A DNA stretch of 64,000 nucleotides from Blastocatellia bacterium (GTDB lineage: Bacteria; Acidobacteriota; Blastocatellia; UBA7656). Each line of letters starts with the position of its first letter. Position 1 is the stretch's first letter. This document shows positions 3,065 through 64,000 of this stretch, in pieces. Below the pieces are notes generated by a model. It did not search any database. It saw nothing but the letters and a program-made list of their open reading frames with translations, and was not told the DNA's origin. The position numbers were made by a program, and so were the translations under genes. The stretch is from assembly GCA_963765495.1 (NCBI GenBank), contig CAVXWP010000015.1, positions 124,115-188,114 of the forward strand. The letters run 5' to 3'.

Positions 3065-4321
3065 GTGATACTGAAGGAAGTTCTTCTCCAGGCGGTTTAC
3101 GCGCTCATAAGCCACCGCCTCCGCGCTTTGATGACGATGTTCGGCATCGCGTGGGGAATCGTGACCGTGGTCCTGTTGATGGCCTACGGCAACGGTTTTC
3201 ACGATGCTATAGAGGCGGGGTTTCGCGGCGCTTTCTCTGACGGCACGGTAGTGATGTACGGCGGCCAGACAAGCTCGCAGGCGGGCGGCGAACGGGCGGG
3301 GAAGCGGATTCGCCTTGAAATGGATGATGTCGAGGCGCTGAGAGAACTCGGCGTCATCAAATTTGCAAGCCCCGAATATATACAGGATTACCCCATCAGT
3401 TTCGGCAACCGGCAGACCTCCACCGCCGTGCGCGGGGTGGCCCCCGAATACGCCGTGATGCGAAACGAGCCCTCCGAATTCGGGCGCTTTATAAACGGCG
3501 AAGATATCGAAAAGCGGCGGCGCGTAGTCTTTCTTGGCTATGAAGTGGCGCGCAAAATATTCGGCAACAGCTATGCCGTGGGGCAAACGGTTCGCATAGC
3601 CGGGATGTCTTTTGAAGTGGTTGGCGTGATGCCAAACAAGGTGCAGATGTCCACCTATTACATGCCGGATAAAAGCAGCGTCTTTATCCCCTATACGACG
3701 GTCGGGCAATTGTGGAACGATCAGTATCTTTACACGCTGGTCTTTCAGACCGTGAACCCGTCGGATCAGCCTCGCGCCATCCGGCAGGTCCGCGAAACGC
3801 TTGCCGCGCGCCACGGGTTTGATCCCAAGGATGAGCGCGCCGTGCGAATGAACGATTCGGTAGAGAACAACCAGATGATAAACGGAATCACAAACGGGCT
3901 GAAAGTGATCCTTGGTTTTATCGGCACGCTGACGTTGATGATAGGCGGCATAGGCGTGATGAATATCATGCTGGTTTCCGTGACCGAACGCACCCGCGAG
4001 GTCGGGATTCGAAAGGCTCTGGGGGCAAAGCGCCGCCACATCCTCATTCAGTTTCTGCTCGAAGGGATGGTTATAACCTTCTTTGGAGGAATCCTCGGAA
4101 TCCTGTTGTCTTACCTTCTGGTGCTGGTGATCGGCGCTCGGCCATTCCTGGCCGAACTGCTTGACGACGTATCGCGCCAGACCGATATACACCTGTTGCT
4201 ATCGGCCGACGTAGTGTTTACGGCGACGAGTATACTGATATTCGTAGGTCTCGTCAGCGGACTCTGGCCCGCCTTTCGCGCCTCGCGCATGGACCCTATA
4301 GAATCGCTTCGTTATGAGTGA
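3065..4321 (+). CDS. ABC transporter permease, MacB/FtsX family (second paralog)
   Basis: [37 protein letters not shown]; GTG start with RBS-like ggagag. Confidence 0.92.
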
Positions 4322-5128: not shown

Positions 5129-6010
5129 ATGACTGTAGCTGAGCGACTTCGAATCACGCTCGAAATGATAAAGATCGAACACACGCTGTTTGCGCTTCCC
5201 TTTGCGTTTCTGGGCGCGGCGCTTGCCGCGCGTGACCTGCCCGCCGAGCCCGCGAGTTTCTGGATATGGAAGCTCCTCTGGATATTACTGGCAATGGTTG
5301 GAGCGCGTTCGGCTGCGATGACTTTCAATCGAATTGCCGACCGCCACTTTGACGCTCAAAATCCGCGCACGGCAAACAGGGCTTTGCCCGCAGGGTTGCT
5401 CGACCTGAAATTTGCCTGGATATTTACCATGATTTCGTCGGCCATTTTCCTGTTTGCCGCCTATCAACTCAATCGGCTGACGTTTCTGCTTTCGCCTGTC
5501 GCGCTGGGCTCGGTGCTGCTTTATTCCTACACCAAGCGATTCACATTTGCATCTCACCTGTTTCTTGGCTGGTGTTTGTCGATAGCTCCGGCGGGCGCGT
5601 GGATAGCGATAAGAGGCGACCTGACGGCAGTGCCGTTGCTTTTGTCGCTTGCGGTGATGCTGTGGACCGCCGGGTTCGACATTCTCTATGCGTGTCAGGA
5701 TTTTGATTTCGACAGGCGTGCGGGACTGCACTCCATCCCGCAGCGGTTCGGATTGAGCGGTGCGCTGTGGATTGCTCGCGGAATACACGCGTTGATGTTT
5801 ATCGCGCTTGTGCTGCTGTTTCGCCTCGCGCATCTCGGATGGATGGGGATGGTCGGGGTCGCGGCTACGGGCGCGCTCCTTGTTTATCAGCACAGCATAG
5901 TCAAATCCGACGATCTTTCCCGGCTCGACGCGGCCTTTTTCAATACCAACGCGATGGTGAGCATCATCTTGTTTGTCACTATGGCAAGCGACGCGCTCCT
6001 GCTCAATTGA
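5129..6010 (+). CDS. ubiA: UbiA-family prenyltransferase (MqnP-like, futalosine menaquinone pathway)
   Basis: [51 protein letters not shown], multiple TM helices. Confidence 0.88.
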
Positions 6011-6058
6011 GCGAGCCGTGCTATAATTTCAAGTTTCAGATTCGAGATTAACCCGATT

Positions 6059-7975
6059 ATGTGCGGTATTTGCGGAGTCGTCGGCAGGACCGATGAACAG
6101 CTTATCAAAAACATGCTTTTGCGCATGGCCCATCGCGGCCCTGACGACGAAGGCGTTTACATAGCCGAAACCTCCGGGGGGGATCGGGTGGGGCTTGGCC
6201 ATCGTCGGCTTTCGATTATAGATCTATCGGCCGGCGGCCACGAACCGATGTCTGACGCAGGCAAACAGGTCTGGCTCACCTACAACGGAGAAATTTACAA
6301 CTTCAAAGAGTTGCGCCGCGAGCTTGAGCATTGCGGCCATAGCTTTCGCTCAGAAAGCGACGCCGAAGTAATCATTTACGCTTACCTCGAATGGGGCCGC
6401 GCATTTCTTACAAGACTCAACGGCATATTCGCCTTAGCCATCTGGGATCAGCGCGATGAAAGCCTTCTGCTCGCGCGCGACCACCTGGGAGTCAAGCCGC
6501 TCTATTATACCGATACGCCCGCTGGTTTTGCCTTTGCCTCTGAGATCAAGGCATTTCTCGAAGTGCCGGGTTTCAAGCGCGAAGTCGATCTGGCCTCGCT
6601 CGATCAGTTCATGTCTTTCCTGTGGGTTCCAGATCCGAAGACCGCGTTTCGCGGAGTCTACAAGCTTCCGCCCGGCCACTACCTGATCTATCGCGAAGGC
6701 CGCGCCGAGACAATCGAGTACTGGGACATCGAGTTTGACGAAGACGACTCGATAAGCGAGGCCGAGTGGGTGGAGCGCGTGCGCGAGCAAATAGAGCGCA
6801 GCGTCCGTGCGCAGATGATAGCGGATGTGCCGTTGGGCGCGTTTCTTTCGGGCGGGATAGATTCTTCAACAATCGTGGCCTTGATGTCTGAGACGGCAAA
6901 TCGCAAGATCACGACCTACACGTTCGGGTTTAGTCAGGAAGATTTGCGTTACGACATACTCGAAGACGATGTGAAGTATGCGCGGATCATCGGAGAGCAG
7001 TTTAATACGGATTACAGGGAAGAGTTTTTAGAGCCGCGCGTGATGGAGTTGCTGCCAAAGCTCGTCTATCACATGGACGAGCCGGTAGCCGATCCGGCGA
7101 TCATAACCAGCTATCTGATCTGTCGGGAGGCGCGCAAACGGCTGACGGTTTTGCTTTCGGGGATGGGCGGCGATGAGGTCTTTGCCGGGTACCCGCGCCA
7201 CCTCGCCGTGAAAGTAGCCGACGCCTATAACCTGATCCCTTCTTTTCTGTCGCGCCCGCTGGTTGCGGCGCTTCCCGGCGCTCGGCCCGGACGCTTTACG
7301 GCGCTCTTTCGCAATACGAAAAAGCTCGCGCGCTCGGCCGCTTTGCCCGAGCGCGAACGCTATCTTGGCTTTGGAACCTATTTCACCGACCAGGAAAAAG
7401 GCGAACTCTATTCGGGAGAGATGGATCGCGTAGCGGGCGAGTGCGATGCTTACAGCGAGCACCGGAAATATTTTGATCGGGTGGCGGGCGAAGACTTCAT
7501 AAACCAGATGCTCTACATCGATCTGAAGACATTTCTGCCTTGTCTGAACCTGACCTACACGGACAAGACGAGTATGGCAAGTTCCATGGAAGTGCGCGTG
7601 CCCCTGCTCGATCACGAGCTTATAGAGATGACCGCCCGCATTCCTGCGCGGCTGAAGCTCAAGGGGCTTACCAGAAAATATATACTCAAGCGGGCGGCCG
7701 AGGCGTGGCTGCCGCGCGAAATCATCTACCGCAAGAAAGCCGGATTCAGCGCGCCCGTCAGAGCATGGCTTGTGCGCGATCTGCGCGACACGGTCGAGGA
7801 CCTGTTGTCGGAAACAAATATTCGCAGCCGTGGATATTTTGATTACAAGCAGGTGCGGCGTCTGATCGACGAAAATCTTTCGGGCCGCGAAGACAACAGC
7901 CTGAAGATATTTCAACTCCTGACGCTCGAGCTATGGCATCGAGCCTTTATTGATAACGGAGCGACACAGACTTGA
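6059..7975 (+). CDS. asnB: Asparagine synthase (glutamine-hydrolysing) family amidotransferase
   Basis: MCGICG Ntn start, HRGPD, GHRRLSIIDL, YNGEIYN, FLSGGIDSS, SGMGGDE, EVRVPLLD. Confidence 0.93.
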   Translation: MCGICGVVGRTDEQLIKNMLLRMAHRGPDDEGVYIAETSGGDRVGLGHRRLSIIDLSAGGHEPMSDAGKQVWLTYNGEIYNFKELRRELEHCGHSFRSESDAEVIIYAYLEWGRAFLTRLNGIFALAIWDQRDESLLLARDHLGVKPLYYTDTPAGFAFASEIKAFLEVPGFKREVDLASLDQFMSFLWVPDPKTAFRGVYKLPPGHYLIYREGRAETIEYWDIEFDEDDSISEAEWVERVREQIERSVRAQMIADVPLGAFLSGGIDSSTIVALMSETANRKITTYTFGFSQEDLRYDILEDDVKYARIIGEQFNTDYREEFLEPRVMELLPKLVYHMDEPVADPAIITSYLICREARKRLTVLLSGMGGDEVFAGYPRHLAVKVADAYNLIPSFLSRPLVAALPGARPGRFTALFRNTKKLARSAALPERERYLGFGTYFTDQEKGELYSGEMDRVAGECDAYSEHRKYFDRVAGEDFINQMLYIDLKTFLPCLNLTYTDKTSMASSMEVRVPLLDHELIEMTARIPARLKLKGLTRKYILKRAAEAWLPREIIYRKKAGFSAPVRAWLVRDLRDTVEDLLSETNIRSRGYFDYKQVRRLIDENLSGREDNSLKIFQLLTLELWHRAFIDNGATQT

Positions 7976-56773: not shown

Positions 56774-58432
<1,659 letters not shown>

Positions 58433-58438
58433 TTTCAA

Positions 58439-58451
58439 AATCAATAACTTA
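58439..58451 (+). promoter_or_regulatory. IHF consensus site
   Basis: AATCAATAACTTA matches WATCAANNNNTTR. Confidence 0.6.
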
Positions 58452-58452
58452 C

Positions 58453-58475
58453 AGCCACCGCAAAGGTGGCTTTTT
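58453..58475 (+). terminator. Rho-independent terminator after tRNA-Val
   Basis: AGCCACC-GCAAA-GGTGGCT followed by a T tract. Confidence 0.8.
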
Positions 58476-58597
58476 AGTTTGGTCAATCATATGGTCAATC
58501 ATTCGTCACCCATCTCTTGATTTGTCAAAGTAATTCATTAGCTCATTTATGAATAGCAATATATTGGGGCAGTGTTAGGTAGGCCGAAAAGTTCGTA

Positions 58598-58876
58598 TTA
58601 TTGCACCATTGCTGATTCTACAATCTCGAACGACGAATCGAATATCAATAGGTGTCCACAGTCACCGCAGTAGGCAAAACGATGTATTTCAGTATTCACA
58701 AACGTGGCACGCAATTCCCGCGCTCGCTCTTTTGCCCTATCTTCGGCCGCACCGATCACTGACCCGGAAGGATCAAAGACGATGAAGCGACGACCACAGA
58801 TGCAGCGCAAACTCCATTCTATAGGCGGCTGAGTGCGCGGGGGCGGAATTCCTTGAAGTGGAGGGTAATTCGCCAT
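58598..58876 (-). CDS. Small hypothetical protein, possible zinc ribbon
   Basis: CICG and CGDCG motifs; directly downstream of the Xre gene. Confidence 0.55.
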   Translation of the reverse strand: MANYPPLQGIPPPRTQPPIEWSLRCICGRRFIVFDPSGSVIGAAEDRAKERARELRATFVNTEIHRFAYCGDCGHLLIFDSSFEIVESAMVQ

Positions 58877-58880
58877 AGGT

Positions 58881-59120
58881 TTATCCCTTCCGCTTGTTTT
58901 TCCTGCCGCTTTCGGCCTCTATCAAGTCCCCAGCTTCGCATTCTAAAACCTCGCAAAGCTTATCAAGTACATCTAGTCTGATGGCCTGCGCTTTGTTGTG
59001 CCTGAGCTTTGCCAGAGACGCATGTGAGATACCGGAATCAATCGCCAGCCGATACGCCGTCATTCCTCTTTCTTCCAGCAATTCGTCAATCCTAATTCTC
59101 GCCATAGTGCCGCCAATCAT
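58881..59120 (-). CDS. Xre/Cro-CI (HTH_26-like) transcriptional regulator
   Basis: IDELLEERGMTAYRLAIDSGISHASLAKL, IRLDVLDKLCEVLECEAGDLI; GGAGG before ATG 59120 (alternative start 59105). Confidence 0.88.
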   Translation of the reverse strand: MIGGTMARIRIDELLEERGMTAYRLAIDSGISHASLAKLRHNKAQAIRLDVLDKLCEVLECEAGDLIEAESGRKNKRKG

Positions 59121-59221
59121 AACATACCTCCCTGCGCATAATACAACGCGCTCGCTTATATATACCATAACGCATCATTGCGCGTAAAGTAAAATAATTC
59201 GCGTTTCGCATTATTTTTTGC

Positions 59222-59250
59222 TTGACATTATATCGCGTTTCGCGTAATAT
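59222..59250 (+). promoter_or_regulatory. Strong rightward sigma70 promoter overlapping a candidate operator
   Basis: TTGACA-17-TAATAT; TCGCGTTTCGC occurs at 59199-59209 and 59233-59243. Confidence 0.75.
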
Positions 59251-59411
59251 TACATCAATTCGATGGTTCTTTAACAATCTAGCGCGAAGCACTCAGGCCG
59301 GAGTTGAAGGAAGAACCCGGAAGGCAGCGACGAGCGCAAAGGTGAGCCAATAACAGTAACTCACCCGACAACACGCAAACATTCACCAATTCAAACCAAG
59401 AGGCTACCACG

Positions 59412-59540
59412 ATGCAAGAAAAACCCTTTCGCACGCTTGAGCAAGTCAAGGCAGGCGACATACCGCAGGTCGAATTTGAAATGACCGCCGAAGACTTTGG
59501 CGAATGGCTACACGAAGATGAGCAGGATTACCCGTTCTAA
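59412..59540 (+). CDS. 42-aa acidic small protein ending in DEQDYPF (absent from the ORF track)
   Basis: MQEKPFRTLEQVKAGDIPQVEFEMTAEDFGEWLHEDEQDYPF; GAGG RBS; first clear ORF after the promoter. Confidence 0.6.
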   Translation: MQEKPFRTLEQVKAGDIPQVEFEMTAEDFGEWLHEDEQDYPF

Positions 59541-59546
59541 CAGCGA

Positions 59547-59577
59547 AGCGGCTAGATGCTCGCAACATCTAGCCGCT
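59547..59577 (+). other. 12-bp perfect hairpin between small ORFs
   Basis: AGCGGCTAGATG-ctcgcaa-CATCTAGCCGCT. Confidence 0.6.
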
Positions 59578-59618
59578 CGAAACTCTCACCGCCTAAACGA
59601 TGAAAGGAATGTTTCACC

Positions 59619-59928
59619 ATGAAATCTATCACGACACCGACCGACATTCAATCACTCACTCAGGATTATTACCCCGCAGCCTACAGCCTTCAATTACAGG
59701 CCGAAGAACTGGCCGCTAGCCGATGACTTTGAAGGCTACAGCGATTGGTCAGAAGACCTTGAGGCTATCCGATTAGCCGAAGAAGAAACCAAAGCTTGGG
59801 ATGGCGCAAAGCCTGTCACTTTGGACGATGGCGCGCAAGTCTTAATCAAAAAGGCTTGTGAACATGCCAAATGCCCGCATCACAAATGCACCCGCTCGGA
59901 CCTTCGTATCGGCGGGATAGACATTTGA
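59619..59928 (+). pseudogene. Frameshifted acidic hypothetical protein with a Cys/His-rich tail
   Basis: MKSITTPTDIQ... stops near 59726 but continues in another frame ADDFEGYSDW...CEHAKCPHHKC; AAGGA RBS. Confidence 0.5.
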
Positions 59929-60203
59929 CCTGTGGATTGTGCAGCAAGGCAATCAAACCGGATGATGTAACAAACCTGCATCATCCGGTTTACCGCAGCC
60001 AGGGAGGAACCGAAACCGAGCCGGTTCACAAAGGCTGTCACGTTGCCTATCACAGCAGGCAAGGCGATTTCAAAGCATTCGGCCGCATCGGTGGCCAGAT
60101 CAGCGCACTATCACGGAGATGGGCTTTCAATCTCAAGAATGTGAAAGACCATCCGGCCTATGAACTGAGCAGGCAATTTTATCGAGCGCACTACGCGCAC
60201 TAA
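59925..60203 (+). CDS. HNH endonuclease
   Basis: CGLC, NLHHPVYRSQGG, VHKGCHVAYH; TTG start overlapping the upstream TGA. Confidence 0.75.
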   Translation: MTCGLCSKAIKPDDVTNLHHPVYRSQGGTETEPVHKGCHVAYHSRQGDFKAFGRIGGQISALSRRWAFNLKNVKDHPAYELSRQFYRAHYAH

Positions 60204-60213
60204 TGGAGGGAGC

Positions 60214-60491
60214 ATGAGCGCAGCAAGATTTCCACTAGGCCAGATGGTAGCCACACCGGGCGCACTGGAAGCACTCGCACAGAACGGCCAGAACGCTTTT
60301 GAATTTATCCGCAGGCATGAAACCGGAGATTGGGGTTGCTTGTGTGATGAAGACAAGCAAGAGAATGAATTTTCAGTTGATAAAGACCTCAGAATCTTCT
60401 CAGCCTACCGCCTCAAAGATGAAACCAAGATTTGGGTAATAACGGAGGCGGATCGAAGCGCAACTACTGTGCTTTTACCAGTGAATACTAA
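60214..60491 (+). pseudogene. Plasmid/phage-associated small conserved protein, frameshift at the C-terminus
   Basis: FPLGQMVATPGA, RHETGDWG, DKQENE, IFSAY, IWVITEADRSATTVLLP; adding 1 nt gives a P-S-E-Y-stop ending that I recall for this family. Confidence 0.65.
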
Positions 60492-60543
60492 CCACACCAG
60501 ACCGGGGCAAGCTCGACTTGCCCCACACTCAGGAGATAAGACC

Positions 60544-60903
60544 ATGATTCATCAGATACCCGCACAAATCGAGATCAAAACAACAGGAGTTGATTACCGA
60601 CAGTGAAGACCTCGCGCAAGTGCGAGAACAGATCAAGGATGCCGAGCTTGAGGCAATCTGCGAAGCGGCCGAAGCCAGGGGCGAAGACGGAAAGCCCCTT
60701 TACACAAACGACAAGTTCAGGGAACGGGCCGCACGCTCAGAGCCTAAAGGCCGATGCTCAATATCAGACGGGACCGTGAAACCGCTCGAATACTTGAGCG
60801 CCATGTTGCGATGCTAACGGCAGAGATTGAGCGAATGCGCCGAGATTATCGCATCGCTTTGATTGACTACGAGCGCGAAGAGTTAGGCCAGCGCGCAGCA
60901 TAG
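60544..60903 (+). pseudogene. Frameshifted coiled-coil hypothetical protein
   Basis: AGGAG RBS, MIHQIPAQIEIK / QQELITDSEDL..GKPLYTND / LERHVAMLTAEIERMRRDY in shifting frames. Confidence 0.45.
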
Positions 60904-60987
60904 CAAGATTAAGGGCCGCGCAGTCCCGCAAAGAATCGCACGGCCCACTATCCCACGCGCCTATTCAGCGCGTAGAAAGGTACTGTT

Positions 60988-61320
60988 ATGACACCACAGG
61001 AGAACTCAGAGAATCAACCGAGCCTGTTTATGGATGACGAGAGCAGGCTTGTACGCCTTGAGGGAATTTCAGCCGAGAGCCGCGAAGCCCTTGCTGACCT
61101 GTTCATCGTATTGCGCCGAGGGATGAGGAAAGAAGGCTGCGGCTGGCAGGTAGTAGAAGCTGAGCTAAACCGATTCATAGAGTTGTTGTTTAGGGAGTCG
61201 GAAGCTTATAGATTGGCCCTGAAATTATATGCAGGCCGGTATGAAGTGATTGGCGGAAGGAATGCCGCCGACATATTGCGCGATGTCGTAGAGAAGTATT
61301 TGCCTGAGAGTGGCGAATAG
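60988..61320 (+). CDS. Hypothetical protein
   Basis: 110-aa ORF with AAGG RBS; no recognised motif. Confidence 0.55.
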   Translation: MTPQENSENQPSLFMDDESRLVRLEGISAESREALADLFIVLRRGMRKEGCGWQVVEAELNRFIELLFRESEAYRLALKLYAGRYEVIGGRNAADILRDVVEKYLPESGE

Positions 61321-61348
61321 AGAGCAAGATAGACGATGCAGCAGGGGA

Positions 61349-61441
61349 AGAAAGCTGAGGCATCAGCGGGGTGCGTGAACGGCAATCAAAGGTTTACAAG
61401 GATTGTGCTTCGCGCGCTCCGGTTCACGCGGGGCGTTAGGC
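61349..61441 (-). other. attC site 3 (distal; L'/R' arm degenerate)
   Basis: Minus strand GCCTAAC-GCCCCG-CGTGAACC-GG-A-GCGCGCGAAGC...; shares an arm with the other two sites but has no intact GTTRRRY. Confidence 0.7.
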
Positions 61442-61491
61442 GCGCCGTGGGATAGCGAGCCGTTTGGAAAAGCTTTGTTCCTGTATAAACA

Positions 61492-62554
61492 CTATAACCT
61501 GGCTCCGTGTGCAACAACACTGCGGATGCTATCGGATAGTTCGCGCACCCCTCGTGTTATATCGTGGTCTCGCAAGTCCAGATACTTTACATCGCGTAAT
61601 AAAGCCGGAACTTCTGTGTCATCAAGAAGAATAGGAAAAACTATTGGCCCGCTTTTCTCTCGAATTCGACGGGTCATAAGTGCGTTAAGCTCCAACTGCG
61701 CCCACCGGCTACTAATGGAGTTCTTGGAAAGGAAGAACGCGAGGAAATCTGCCGAATCTAAGCCTCGTGATACTTCATCGCTAATTGACTGTCCGATAGA
61801 CACTCGATCTTGGTCAATCCAAACATCTACTCCCTCAGCTCGTATGCTGAAAGCGAAAGTTGTCACAATATTGCTATCTGCATGGGAGTAACTGAAAAAC
61901 ACTTGCGGGCTACCTTTGCCCTCGATTGTAAGGAGAGACCTTATTGCTAGGCGAACCGCAGACAATATAGTGGCTTCAGGGATTCGATTCTCTAGGGCTG
62001 GGCGTAATAATGAGCCAAGCTCGTCAAGCAGAGAGCTATCAGCAGTTGCTTGCTGCGCTTGTTCTGCATGTATAGTTTGTTCCAGAGCTTGTGCTGTTCG
62101 GCTTAGATCCGCAGCGACGCTAACTGCTAAATCGTGGGCATCATTAAAGGTTGCAATAGTATGTCGTTCCTGTAAAAGGTGTTTGAATTTTTCTAGTGCC
62201 TCAAGCTTTTGCGCATCGCGCTCGATATTCCTCGGCAAAATAGGAATGTTTTCATTCCGAAGATATACTAGACAGGGCTTGCCGAGTCGAAATCCTTCAG
62301 AGTATTCAGCCTCTGTAAAAGACACAGTCATGCTCGGAACAGGCTTCCGTATTTATACCCAACAATGACAACAAGTATATCACTGCGCCGCACCTCTTCT
62401 ATGCAGGTTTCAATCGGCAAAGATGAGCGCGCTCCAAAAAACTCCATTGAGTCGTGTTGAAGCTGAACTTCCTGACTGCCTCAAGTACCGCCTGTCGCTC
62501 ATCGGCAAGATCCGTGTACGTACTACATAGAAATACTGTGAGAGATGATTTCAT
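61492..62554 (-). pseudogene. DUF4062 + TIR fusion gene cassette (two apparent 1-nt deletions near 62466 and 62340)
   Basis: MKSSLTVFLCSTYTDLADERQAV / SMEFFGAR..CIEEVRRSDILVVIVGYKYGS / SFTEAEY; TIR VFFSYSHAD, VWID, SRWAQLEL, VFPILLDD. Confidence 0.85.
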
Positions 62555-62777
62555 GATTAACCGCTCGTCAGCGTCTTAACTCAAGAGTTCTAGTGCTTCA
62601 TTACCTATTACAGCGGTTTGCAGACGAATGAGTAGAGTTATTCAATAACACATCGTACGGATGCAGGCAATTGATGTGTCTGTCTCTTCGTTCAAGTGAA
62701 AGCCGCTGTAGTATATGAAATCGCCATAGAATTATGCTTACCGAACTGTTCCATAGCAACCATAATTGCGTGAGCGC

Positions 62778-62869
62778 GCCTAACGCTTCGGTTGACCGGG
62801 CGCGCGAACGGCCTGAAAGGAACCATAAGAAACTCGCTTTGCGCGCTCCGGTCGAGCCGTTTGTAATGC
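62778..62869 (-). other. attC site 2 (92 bp)
   Basis: Minus strand R'' GCATTAC, 5-nt spacer, L'' GCTCGACC, GG, extra A, stem, CC, L' GGTCAAC, 6-nt spacer, R' GTTAGGC. Confidence 0.88.
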
Positions 62870-62888
62870 CCAACTTTCGCGTGTGCTA

Positions 62889-63835
62889 CTATCTCTGATT
62901 TAATACGCGCTTCAATTCCGGCAACACCTAGTAATCATTATGAATCCGCCATTGCCTTCAAATATCTCGATAAGGCGGCGGTTAGCCAGAGCCTTCAATG
63001 TATGTCGAATCAGCATTAAAGGTTGGTCGAGTTGCTCCGATATTGAATCTTCATTTACCCTCGTTATTAACGATCTGAGTGGCTATCGTGTTCACAATAG
63101 AGCTATAGTCAGGTATGTACACCCTCGCGTATTGCTCAAAGCCATAAAGAATTATGGTAAATGCTGGTGGATCGACACTCATGGGTCTTACCAATTCTAT
63201 GTAGCCTTTATGTTCCAATATATCAAGTGATTCAAAAAAATCTTTCTGATGGATTTCGTGCGGTTGTACTTGCGCATACAAAGGTTCAGTTTCTATAAAT
63301 GGATAGTCTATTTCAAGAGCCATTTCACAAGCAAGTTTGAGAATCAAGCTGTCCAATTCTGTGAGGCCGGGCACAATGTCAATTACGGTTTGTGCATACG
63401 CTGGAGGATTGCCTAGCGGCGGCCTATCCAGTTTTCCAAAAATTGACAATACAATACTTTCTAGTTCGGTATCATAGTTATCAAGGTTCTCAATCTTTAC
63501 CCAGACAGTCGTCCTCAAGCACGCTGGAATTTCACAATCGTCAATAATGATTGGGATAAGCTTGGTATTGTCTTCAATTCTTCTGACCATTCCGGCATTT
63601 AACTCTTCCCGGACCCAGTGCTTCTACGCTATACTTGGATAAAACCGCAATCATTGCTTGGGCATTCTTTTATCCCCTCTTCAAATATTTTGTCGATCAG
63701 TTTATCTCCTGCATGCATCTCCCATTTGTCTACCCAAGCATCAATTCCTTTTGCGCGTAGTCTGGCTGCGAAATCCAACACGAATCTGTCTTTATCTTCG
63801 GATGCGTGACTCACAAAAACCTTCGGTGTATTCAC
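62889..63835 (-). pseudogene. TIR-domain protein gene cassette (about four apparent indels)
   Basis: VFVSHASEDK, AWVDKWEMHAGD / NAQAMIAVLSKYSV / HWVREELNAG..LIPIIIDDCEIP / ..VLPELKRVL-stop; GGAGG RBS before GTG. Confidence 0.85.
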
Positions 63836-63892
63836 TCTTTCCTCCCTTTCTGTACATTATATCCTTATTGGCTCAAGTCGTCTGTTGGTTAG

Positions 63893-63985
63893 GCATAACG
63901 GTTGGGATGACCGGGCGCGCGAGCAGCACTGGTGGAGCTATAAGATACTTGCTTCGCGCGCTCCGGTTGATGCGATTTGTTAGGC
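63893..63985 (-). other. attC site 1 (93 bp); its own cassette lies beyond the window
   Basis: Minus strand R'' GCCTAAC, L'' CATCAACC, GG, extra A, stem GCGCGCGA/TCGCGCGC, L' GGTCATC, 6-nt spacer, R' GTTATGC. Confidence 0.88.
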
Positions 63986-64000
63986 CCGGCCTGAGTTATA

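Follow-up and report, generated by a model that had tools for sequence, protein, structure and literature searches.

Two TIR-type cassettes, probably decayed, at what is probably the distal, island-fused tip of a chromosomal integron array in a Blastocatellia bacterium

The stretch of DNA analysed here, referred to as the window, comprises 64,000 nucleotides of a Blastocatellia bacterium (assembly GCA_963765495.1, C15:124115-188114), and its final base is the end of contig C15. This paper focuses on the region 61349-64000, for which an earlier note, made from the letters alone, had described a hidden integron-type cassette array. Three related palindromes are present in this region, and the two intervals between them form cassettes with one gene each, encoded on the strand of the attC sites. 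Both genes code for TIR-domain proteins, and both are interrupted by frame breaks. The innermost palindrome is joined to the arm of an element integrated at a tRNA-Val gene (Table 1). Most probably, a chromosomal array of integron cassettes has its distal end here, with two TIR-type cassettes that are likely decayed and a terminus that is fused to a genomic island.

The three palindromes were confirmed at 63893-63985, 62778-62869 and 61349-61441. In an alignment they showed a mean column identity of 76%, and the 5' arm, ACCGGAGCGCGCGAAGC, was near-identical in all three copies. Sites 1 and 2 each contain one deviation from the R''/R' consensus (RYYYAAC / GTTRRRY). Site 1 represents the 3' end of a cassette truncated by the contig end at 64000, and cassette 1, which is bounded by an intact attC on both sides, is in principle excisable. 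Site 3 retains its R'' box and 5' arm in intact form, with 19 nt that match site 1 exactly (BLAST, 19/19); its 3' arm is mutated, the R' box is lost and the site is joined to the island arm from about 61371 downwards. Because of the loss of its R' box, cassette 2 is probably not excisable. The cassette ends are complementary, with 11/11 matches between GTTAGGCGCGC and GCGCGCCTAAC and 10/12 matches between GTTATGCCTAAC and GTTGGGCATTAC in cassette 1, and both counts given in the earlier note were correct. Such complementarity is predicted by a crossover between the G and the TT: a cassette begins with six bases that are part of the attC site at its far end.

As Rfam contains no attC family, covariance models were built from the attC sites of the genome itself. 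Acidobacterial chromosomal attC sites have already been used for a taxon-specific model, according to the available part of that work (PMC8352920). Model R1 was seeded with nine attC sites from the contigs C2, C6 and C9. Since four of these nine had been chosen by their likeness to the repeats in the window, an independent model, R2, was built only from 49 attC sites of three arrays starting at intI genes. The alignment of these 49 sites was 91.4% paired, with 7 pairs changed on both sides; none of 500 shuffles reached the observed score, and slid controls paired at 21-38%. With R1, site 2 (62776-62871) was identified on the minus strand with 60.4 bits (E 1.9e-14) and site 1 (63891-63987) with 39.2 bits (E 1.5e-8), while the plus-strand scores at the same places were 17.6 and 14.5 bits, respectively. 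With R2, scores of 29.5 bits (E 5.1e-6) for site 2 and 24.9 bits (E 1.1e-4) for site 1 were obtained, and these were the top two matches of R2 in the window. Site 3 gave a partial match to R1 on the minus strand (12.6 bits, E 0.35); its L'/R' arm had been described as degenerate before. The plus-strand fold predicted for site 1 is a hairpin in which the R and L arms pair and one T is left unpaired; the z-scores of the fold energy on this strand were -3.3 for site 1 and -1.4 for site 2, folding energy alone being weak evidence. At least dozens of matches to the two sites, with about 75-87% identity, were identified in relatives of the same family. Judged from sequence and covariation, sites 1 and 2 are genuine attC sites on the minus strand, so that the attC architecture and the gene-matched orientation proposed earlier were borne out by significant model matches at these two sites.

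Table 1. Coordinates of the features at the array end, of the integron integrase genes and of attC-flanked homologues in other genomes. Positions in the window are counted from its first base.
Feature	Sequence	Position	Strand	Details
attC site 1	window	63891-63987	-	R'' GCCTAAC 63985-63979, R' GTTATGC 63899-63893
Cassette 1	window	62785-63898	-	about 1.1 kb, from the TT of the R' box of attC site 1 to the G of the R' box of attC site 2
Cassette 1 pseudogene	window	62892-63835	-	protein of about 315 amino acids, AbTir-like TIR and C-terminal domain
attC site 2	window	62776-62871	-	R'' GCATTAC 62869-62863, R' GTTAGGC 62784-62778
Cassette 2	window	61442-62783	-	holds one gene
Hairpin repeat	window	62607-62710	-	about 105 nt, 15-nt inverted ends TTACAGCGGTTTGCA...TGCAAACCGCTGTAA, in cassette 2 upstream of the gene
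Cassette 2 pseudogene	window	61495-62554	-	about 355 amino acids: DUF4062 (TIR-like NADase), helical stalk, TIR_2; stop codon 61492-61494
Decayed terminal attC (site 3)	window	61349-61441	-	R'' GCCTAAC 61441-61435, no R' box recognisable
Arm of tRNA-Val-integrated island	window	58434-61371	+	XRE repressor, promoter-like region with leader, small open reading frames
Island small open reading frames	window	59871-60203, 60214-60606, 60988-61320	+	the first with a weak HNH match
XRE-type repressor	window	58881-59168	-	PHROG matches
tRNA-Val (GAC)	window	58360-58433	+	ARAGORN; Rfam tRNA 67.4 bits; presumed island attachment site
IS4-type insertion sequence	window	56931-58236	+	just upstream of tRNA-Val
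intI	C6	263576-264514	-	adjoins co-oriented attC array
intI	C17	4162-5100	+	adjoins co-oriented attC array
intI	C3	315777-316718	-	adjoins co-oriented attC array
DUF4062-TIR gene, Chloroflexota	L038	2501-3553		attC 2408-2489 upstream; attC 3582-3643 downstream (50.5 bits); two more downstream
DUF4062-TIR gene, Longimicrobium	L033	1183-2238		attC 2309-2413, then two more
DUF4062-TIR gene, Desulfocapsa	L035	ends 1438		attC 1464-1529
DUF4062-TIR gene, Desulfobacteraceae	L037			attC beside gene, E 0.005
DUF4062-TIR gene, delta-proteobacterial metagenome-assembled genome	L039			attC upstream E 6e-7, downstream E 0.011

Integrase genes had been expected beyond the window, and three intI genes are indeed present in the genome, on other contigs, with 475-487 bits compared to the TIGR02249 cut-off of 265. 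The IntI protein encoded on C6 is 70-75% identical to proteins named integron integrase, including entries from metagenome-assembled genomes (MAGs) that carry the labels Pyrinomonadaceae and Blastocatellia. Beyond intI itself, the three loci have no homology in their flanks, by which a duplication of one integron together with its flanks was rejected. In a search of the whole genome with R1, at least 150 matches were obtained (the best 150 of 1282 candidates were scored), and iterated nhmmer searches identified 259 sites of the main attC type, which together with five sites of the window subtype amount to at least 264 attC-like sites. The array that had been called hidden is in fact a small part of this system. 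Between co-oriented neighbouring attC sites, 234 intervals were counted with a median inner length of 446 nt; the longest open reading frame (ORF) has the orientation of the attC sites in 156 of these and the reverse orientation in 31, while 47 contain none of at least 40 amino acids. Seven contig ends fall within arrays: arrays leave the contigs downstream at the start of C2, the end of C3, the end of C6 and the start of C17, and are entered from upstream at the ends of C2, C12 and C15. Since four arrays leave and three enter, the C15 array probably continues into one of those four, and the last bases of C15 show no overlap with any other contig end.

A cluster of attC sites without an integrase nearby is termed CALIN. 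A free-standing CALIN, consisting of a few cassettes without an integrase of their own and carried as cargo of the tRNA-Val island, would be an alternative to the end of an array headed by intI. No intI gene was identified in the 64-kb window, which is the distal side, and C15 contains a weak tyrosine-recombinase match at 5683-6450. In the island copy on C14, a single attC site is present at the same junction, and the attC sites of the window belong to a minority subtype that is also found scattered at C2:52182, C9:8718, C9:18713 and C9:46217. These points agree with a free-standing cluster; the count of arrays leaving and entering contigs nevertheless provides a partner end for C15, and on C12 the homologous junction is followed by an array which, via a tRNA-Lys repeat, is paired with the intI-bearing end of C6. 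A free-standing CALIN is for this reason rather unlikely.

The genes of both cassettes contain frame breaks, six in total. For cassette 1, four frame changes were located near 63664, 63622, 63054 and 62928 by tblastn with its homologues L046, L044 and P0122, the last from another assembly and 96% identical to the cassette 1 gene; for cassette 2, two frame changes were found near 62468 and 62340. Several observations weigh against an integron array end with two decayed genes. The contig ends 13 bases past site 1, and a linkage to intI is not assembled. The R1 seeds were partly picked by likeness to the window repeats, the fully independent model R2 gave moderate scores only, at 25-30 bits, and site 3 was not recognised in the R2 scan of the window. 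A promoter scan gave 2 sites compared to 4.4 expected, nothing above chance. Each of the six breaks removes one or two bases, in some cases within a short one-base run, and this pattern is also the signature of long-read consensus error near a contig end.

The last point leads to a second alternative, in which both cassettes are intact and functional, the six breaks are assembly or consensus errors, and two working TIR proteins are encoded. The segments between the breaks align well to homologues, no stop is present within any aligned segment, and all breaks are located within the last 2.7 kb of the contig. Against this stand five copies of an insertion sequence (IS) in the genome that are 100% identical over about 1.3 kb, and about 25 kb of neighbouring genes in the window that are long unbroken ORFs. 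P0122 reads through two of the breaks of the window, but was itself called only from an internal start codon, which suggests an independent decay of the same cassette. On the basis of these three observations the breaks are considered likely to be real, and an origin of all six by sequence error is improbable. With four frameshifts in one gene and two in the other, nothing in this region is a working defence gene as assembled; both TIR genes are probably dead, and they most likely represent decaying, unexpressed copies at the silent end of an array. The decay of both copies fits the idea that costly abortive-infection genes erode at a silent array end.

For the movement of the cassettes, the plus strand would act as the bottom strand of each attC site and would fold into a hairpin with extrahelical bases. 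The integrase from one of the three intI genes is predicted to cut between the G and the TT of the R' box and to excise or insert cassettes as circles. By this route cassette 1 could still be mobile, while cassette 2 probably could not.

In cassette 1, the N-terminal ORF of 68 amino acids matches positions 1-51 of Pfam TIR_2 (E 3.2e-12), and SEFIR is reached at threshold only. The TIR domain is spread over three frames, and no single ORF is able to produce it; the motif WVREEL is present. The C-terminal domain of about 180 amino acids gave weak winged-helix matches. Intact homologues from metagenomes, L044 with 337 and L046 with 318 amino acids, have the same composition of an N-terminal TIR domain and a C-terminal domain of about 180 amino acids, and in the Atlas an intact relative groups with clusters of TIR proteins of about 315 amino acids. 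Pieces of the cassette 1 gene match the PADLOC profile bSEFIR at positions 35-84 (E 5.6e-13) and 132-203 (E 1.8e-8) of 412, and the genes of both cassettes match the PADLOC candidate PDC-S66. A metagenome scan with the cassette 1 alignment gave no matches, and a scan with the protein P0124 gave six distant intact homologues, none of which (0/6) has an attC match. Intact proteins of the cassette 1 type are candidates for single-gene anti-phage proteins, in which a predicted AbTir-like TIR NAD+ hydrolase (NADase) domain would be combined with a sensor-like C-terminal domain.

At the metagenomic locus L044 (858-3973), a second TIR protein is encoded directly after the intact cassette 1 homologue, and XRE and ImmA/IrrE-like genes precede this homologue. 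This setting resembles a defence island, and no attC match was found there.

In cassette 2, an ORF of 279 amino acids contains the TIR domain within the open piece (Pfam TIR_2, E 2.3e-24; motif WAQLEL), and a DUF4062 fragment of 51 amino acids is present upstream (27 bits compared to a Pfam cut-off of 24.7), the gene being broken inside DUF4062. The best of the homologues listed, P0002 and P0003, are intact proteins of 363 amino acids with 64% identity, and among the 120 homologues listed most have 350-470 amino acids and both DUF4062 and TIR_2. The TIR domains of both cassettes are nearest in sequence to the NAD+ hydrolases AbTIR and BtTir, and in alignments with the AbTIR and BtTir chains the Glu of WVREEL or WAQLEL falls on that of their Y-E-L. 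This Glu is taken here to be the catalytic residue of AbTir. The TIR_2 matches and both motifs agree with the earlier description of one TIR gene with a catalytic-type Glu in each complete cassette.

For the cassette 2 family, E289 in the TIR domain and E84 in DUF4062 of P0002 are invariant in 57 members. The AlphaFold model of P0002 (predicted local distance difference test, 80.4) consists of two alpha/beta domains linked by long helices, with the AbTir TIR structure 7uxu as its best fold match (template modelling score 0.83, normalised to the target). The DUF4062 domain of P0002 and the helices following it align to residues 8-181 of KpSwz (PDB 10wc, E 3.4e-11). The Glu aligned to residue 82 of the KpSwz chain is kept, and by residue count it corresponds to E97, the residue that was mutated in the work on Swarozyc, according to its available part (10.64898/2026.05.01.722283). 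Proteins of the cassette 2 type are predicted to consist of a Swarozyc-like DUF4062 NADase domain and a stalk, with the auxiliary domain replaced by a second, canonical TIR domain, and are likewise candidates for an anti-phage function. From the families to which they belong, the intact relatives of both genes would most likely sense infection, oligomerise and destroy NAD+, leading to abortive infection.

Upstream of the gene, cassette 2 also contains a hairpin repeat of about 105 nt (minimum free energy -28.2 kcal/mol), with copies in the same genome at C9:654457-654561 and C8:575123-575227. Further copies occur in the relatives G011 (four) and G002 (one) beside unrelated genes. A role as gene-specific leader was rejected, since the copies precede unrelated genes, and an Rfam search of 58200-64000 identified the tRNA only and no match for the hairpin. 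In other genera (also L056-L060) the element was likewise found beside unrelated genes, including parA/parB, with at least one compensatory change between copies. That the three palindromes are themselves a dispersed hairpin repeat of the repetitive extragenic palindromic (REP) or miniature inverted-repeat transposable element (MITE) type, lying between genes by chance, could be suspected from the presence of this other hairpin and from the unremarkable fold z-scores of site 2, but is hardly credible given the strand-specific covariance-model matches, the R''/R' boxes, the cassette-specific complementarity of the cassette ends, and the three intI genes with about 260 related sites in co-oriented arrays beside them.

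The earlier note had taken the array as the distal end of an integron or CALIN serving as a shufflable TIR defence library. The distal array end beside a tRNA-integrated element was retained; the library was not, as the arrays contain few TIR genes. From 187 ORF-bearing cassettes, 157 were represented by their longest ORFs, and 150 of these were analysed. A Pfam family at E <= 1e-4 was identified in 47 of the 150, comprising PemK, PIN, HicA and Phd (toxin-antitoxin), Uma2, HEPN, Abi_alpha, Mrr_cat and assorted enzymes, and also transposases, five of them of the IS110 type. TIR_2 was found in only one of the 150, at C2:13751-14884 (minus strand), so that the term shufflable library is overstated. 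This gene is intact, encodes 378 amino acids and is not close to either gene of the window. That two TIR cassettes adjoin each other here reflects local coincidence or a small cluster rather than a theme of the arrays.

The DUF4062-TIR gene has a wider distribution. When species-representative genomes were scanned with P0002, 13 loci from widely differing phyla were obtained, and in five of the 13 an R1 attC-like site lies on the gene strand directly beside the gene (Table 1). Since R1 is tuned to its own genome, five of 13 is a lower bound. The homologues beside attC matches in other phyla are intact, and their attC-flanked position in five of 13 loci indicates that the DUF4062-TIR gene is a travelling cassette. 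A DUF4062-stalk-TIR protein with two NADase-type domains, flanked by attC sites in at least five distant lineages, is a candidate single-gene defence system that would be new and would be spread by integrons.

Compared to known systems, the arrays of this genome resemble sedentary chromosomal integrons and CALINs in their attC architecture, in their co-oriented one-gene cassettes with intI in the genome, and in a content of mostly small ORFs of unknown function and toxin-antitoxin genes. In contrast to sedentary integrons, three intI genes and at least 264 attC-like sites are present here, and the array end is joined to the arm of a tRNA island, a junction which recurs four times in the genome. 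Phage-defence integron cassettes, called BRiCs, have reportedly been described by Kieffer et al. and Darracq et al. in 2025. The brc22 and brc23 cassettes carry ThsB-like TIR genes in mobile integrons, as stated in the available part of 10.1101/2024.07.02.601719. Like BRiCs, the cassettes of the window contain defence-type genes, including the TIR family; unlike them, they are single-gene cassettes from an environmental acidobacterium, both copies are frameshifted and the function is only predicted. The storage of anti-phage genes by integrons is already known, and the region described here is in essence one more case of it, without a new principle.

Thoeris, CBASS, Pycsar and SPARTA, with which the cassettes had been compared, turned out to be poor models, because each cassette contains one gene without partner genes. 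The ThsB_TIR score of 17.1 bits is below the cut-off of 21.2, and no ThsA-like ORF was found in 61349-64000. Single-protein TIR/SEFIR and DUF4062 (Swarozyc, Evangelion, NIR) systems are better comparisons. For the single-gene defence system bSEFIR (PADLOC PDLC03957), the match of the cassette 1 pieces is partial, covering about 40% of the profile. Both TIR domains have their best matches, in sequence and in fold, among AbTir and BtTir (PDB 7uwg, 7uxu, 8g83, 7uxr), with the Glu of W-x-x-x-E aligned; the partner domains differ in the families of the window, for which NADase activity is predicted. DUF4062/NIR NADase defence proteins have been described as Swarozyc (10.64898/2026.05.01.722283), as Evangelion (10.64898/2026.06.25.731849), and as NIR, Vulcan and Vesta (10.64898/2026.09.04.749371), as far as the accessible parts of these preprints go. 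The cassette 2 family shares with these proteins an N-terminal DUF4062, a helical stalk and the Glu aligned to KpSwz E97. It differs from them in that a canonical TIR_2 takes the place of the variable auxiliary or sensor domain, giving two NADase-type domains per chain, and in that the copy in the window is broken. The DUF4062-stalk-TIR architecture was not met in the accessible parts of the three DUF4062 preprints (10.64898/2026.05.01.722283, 10.64898/2026.06.25.731849, 10.64898/2026.09.04.749371).

The array end is adjoined by the arm of the tRNA-Val island. In BLAST searches, seven further copies of the segment 59330-61371 were identified in the genome, with 77-85% identity. Island copies are located at the tRNA genes for Lys on C12, Thr on C14, Met on C16 and Val on C9; phage-type integrases are encoded in the C12, C14 and C2 copies, the C2 copy also contains a PrimPol/AAA_25 gene, and the C9 copy is bounded, at a distance of 23.8 kb, by a tRNA repeat of 49 nt. 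The designation as a tRNA-integrated element was right in view of these tRNA sites, phage-type integrases and direct repeats. PHROGs and Pfam searches of the small island ORFs identified no family beyond the XRE repressor and the weak HNH match. In four of the five copies which keep the right end (C15, C12, C2 and C14, not C16), this end abuts the 5' half of an attC site at the same point. Between C12 and C2 the identity is 91% and extends over the arm, the junction and the last cassette; between C12 and C14 it is 82.5% over the arm and the junction. Since the shared junction has diverged along with the arm, the decayed terminal attC site is an old inherited junction and not a recent accident. 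An IS-like insertion of the island arm into an attC site was rejected, since no 3' half of an attC site is present at the other end of any copy, and in view of the tRNA sites, phage-type integrases and direct repeats of the copies.

A perfect repeat of 48 nt of the tRNA-Lys 3' end was identified at C6:257303-257256, 6.3 kb past the C6 intI gene and away from its array, with a DnaG-type primase gene and a DUF6788 gene in between. Its orientation places the C6 intI gene and array, with at least 27 attC sites, inside the island starting at the tRNA-Lys gene of C12. The C12 arm of this island (C12:204230-213096; with C6:257256-277694) ends in 10 more attC sites. Together, these features point to the carriage of at least one whole integron by the tRNA-Lys island. 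In a more general form, the integrons of this genome would not be sedentary: whole units of intI and array, including that of the window, would ride tRNA-integrating islands, the junction of arm and attC would be ancestral and arrays of dozens of cassettes would move in one piece from one tRNA site or genome to another; this is put forward tentatively, as a possibility that falls somewhat short of being probable. It is weakened by the C12-C6 join, which is inferred rather than assembled, by the finding that no repeat of the tRNA-Val 3' end and no attR was identified for the tRNA-Val island, and by six homologous arms in four relatives, in which no attC site is present within about 2.5 kb. Synteny with the relative G007, where the neighbours on the right correspond to a central part of C8, is rearranged and uninformative for the far flank of the tRNA-Val island.

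Salmonella genomic island 1 is an integrative island with a class 1 integron. The candidate described here is similar in that an integron lies within an integrative island, and it differs in that a large array of the sedentary type (at least 37 attC sites on C12 and C6), rather than a short and mobile resistance integron, would be located in a tRNA-Lys island. A report of large chromosomal integrons in tRNA islands was not found in a literature search, which is not proof that none exists. If the island-borne integron were confirmed, large chromosomal integrons of soil Acidobacteria would be mobile as whole units.

In all eight island copies, a strong promoter-like TTGACA-N17-TAATAT is present (window 59170-59400). 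The leader that comes next is conserved over about 120 nt and contains two hairpins, GCGCGAAGC...GGGCGCAAGG...GACAACAC; it runs divergent from the XRE repressor and might represent a regulatory RNA or an operator region of the island's switch. The four other copies of the IS4-type element upstream of the tRNA-Val gene are 100% identical over about 1305 nt, and the copy in the window is flanked by a direct duplication of 100 bp with 99% identity (56837-56936 and 58300-58399). The duplication includes the first 37 nt of tRNA-Val, so that a partial copy of the tRNA is present upstream of the IS.

On contig C2, two long arrays diverge, with minus-strand attC sites at 422-28368 and plus-strand sites at 32943-55789. 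No intI gene is present between them (C2:28368-32943), which suggests an inversion within an array. The five IS110-family transposase genes in cassette intervals are located at C2:3871-5175, C2:11992-13326, C2:21305-22639, C9:21018-22352 and C9:30722-32026; they are reminiscent of the IS1111 group, which targets attC sites.

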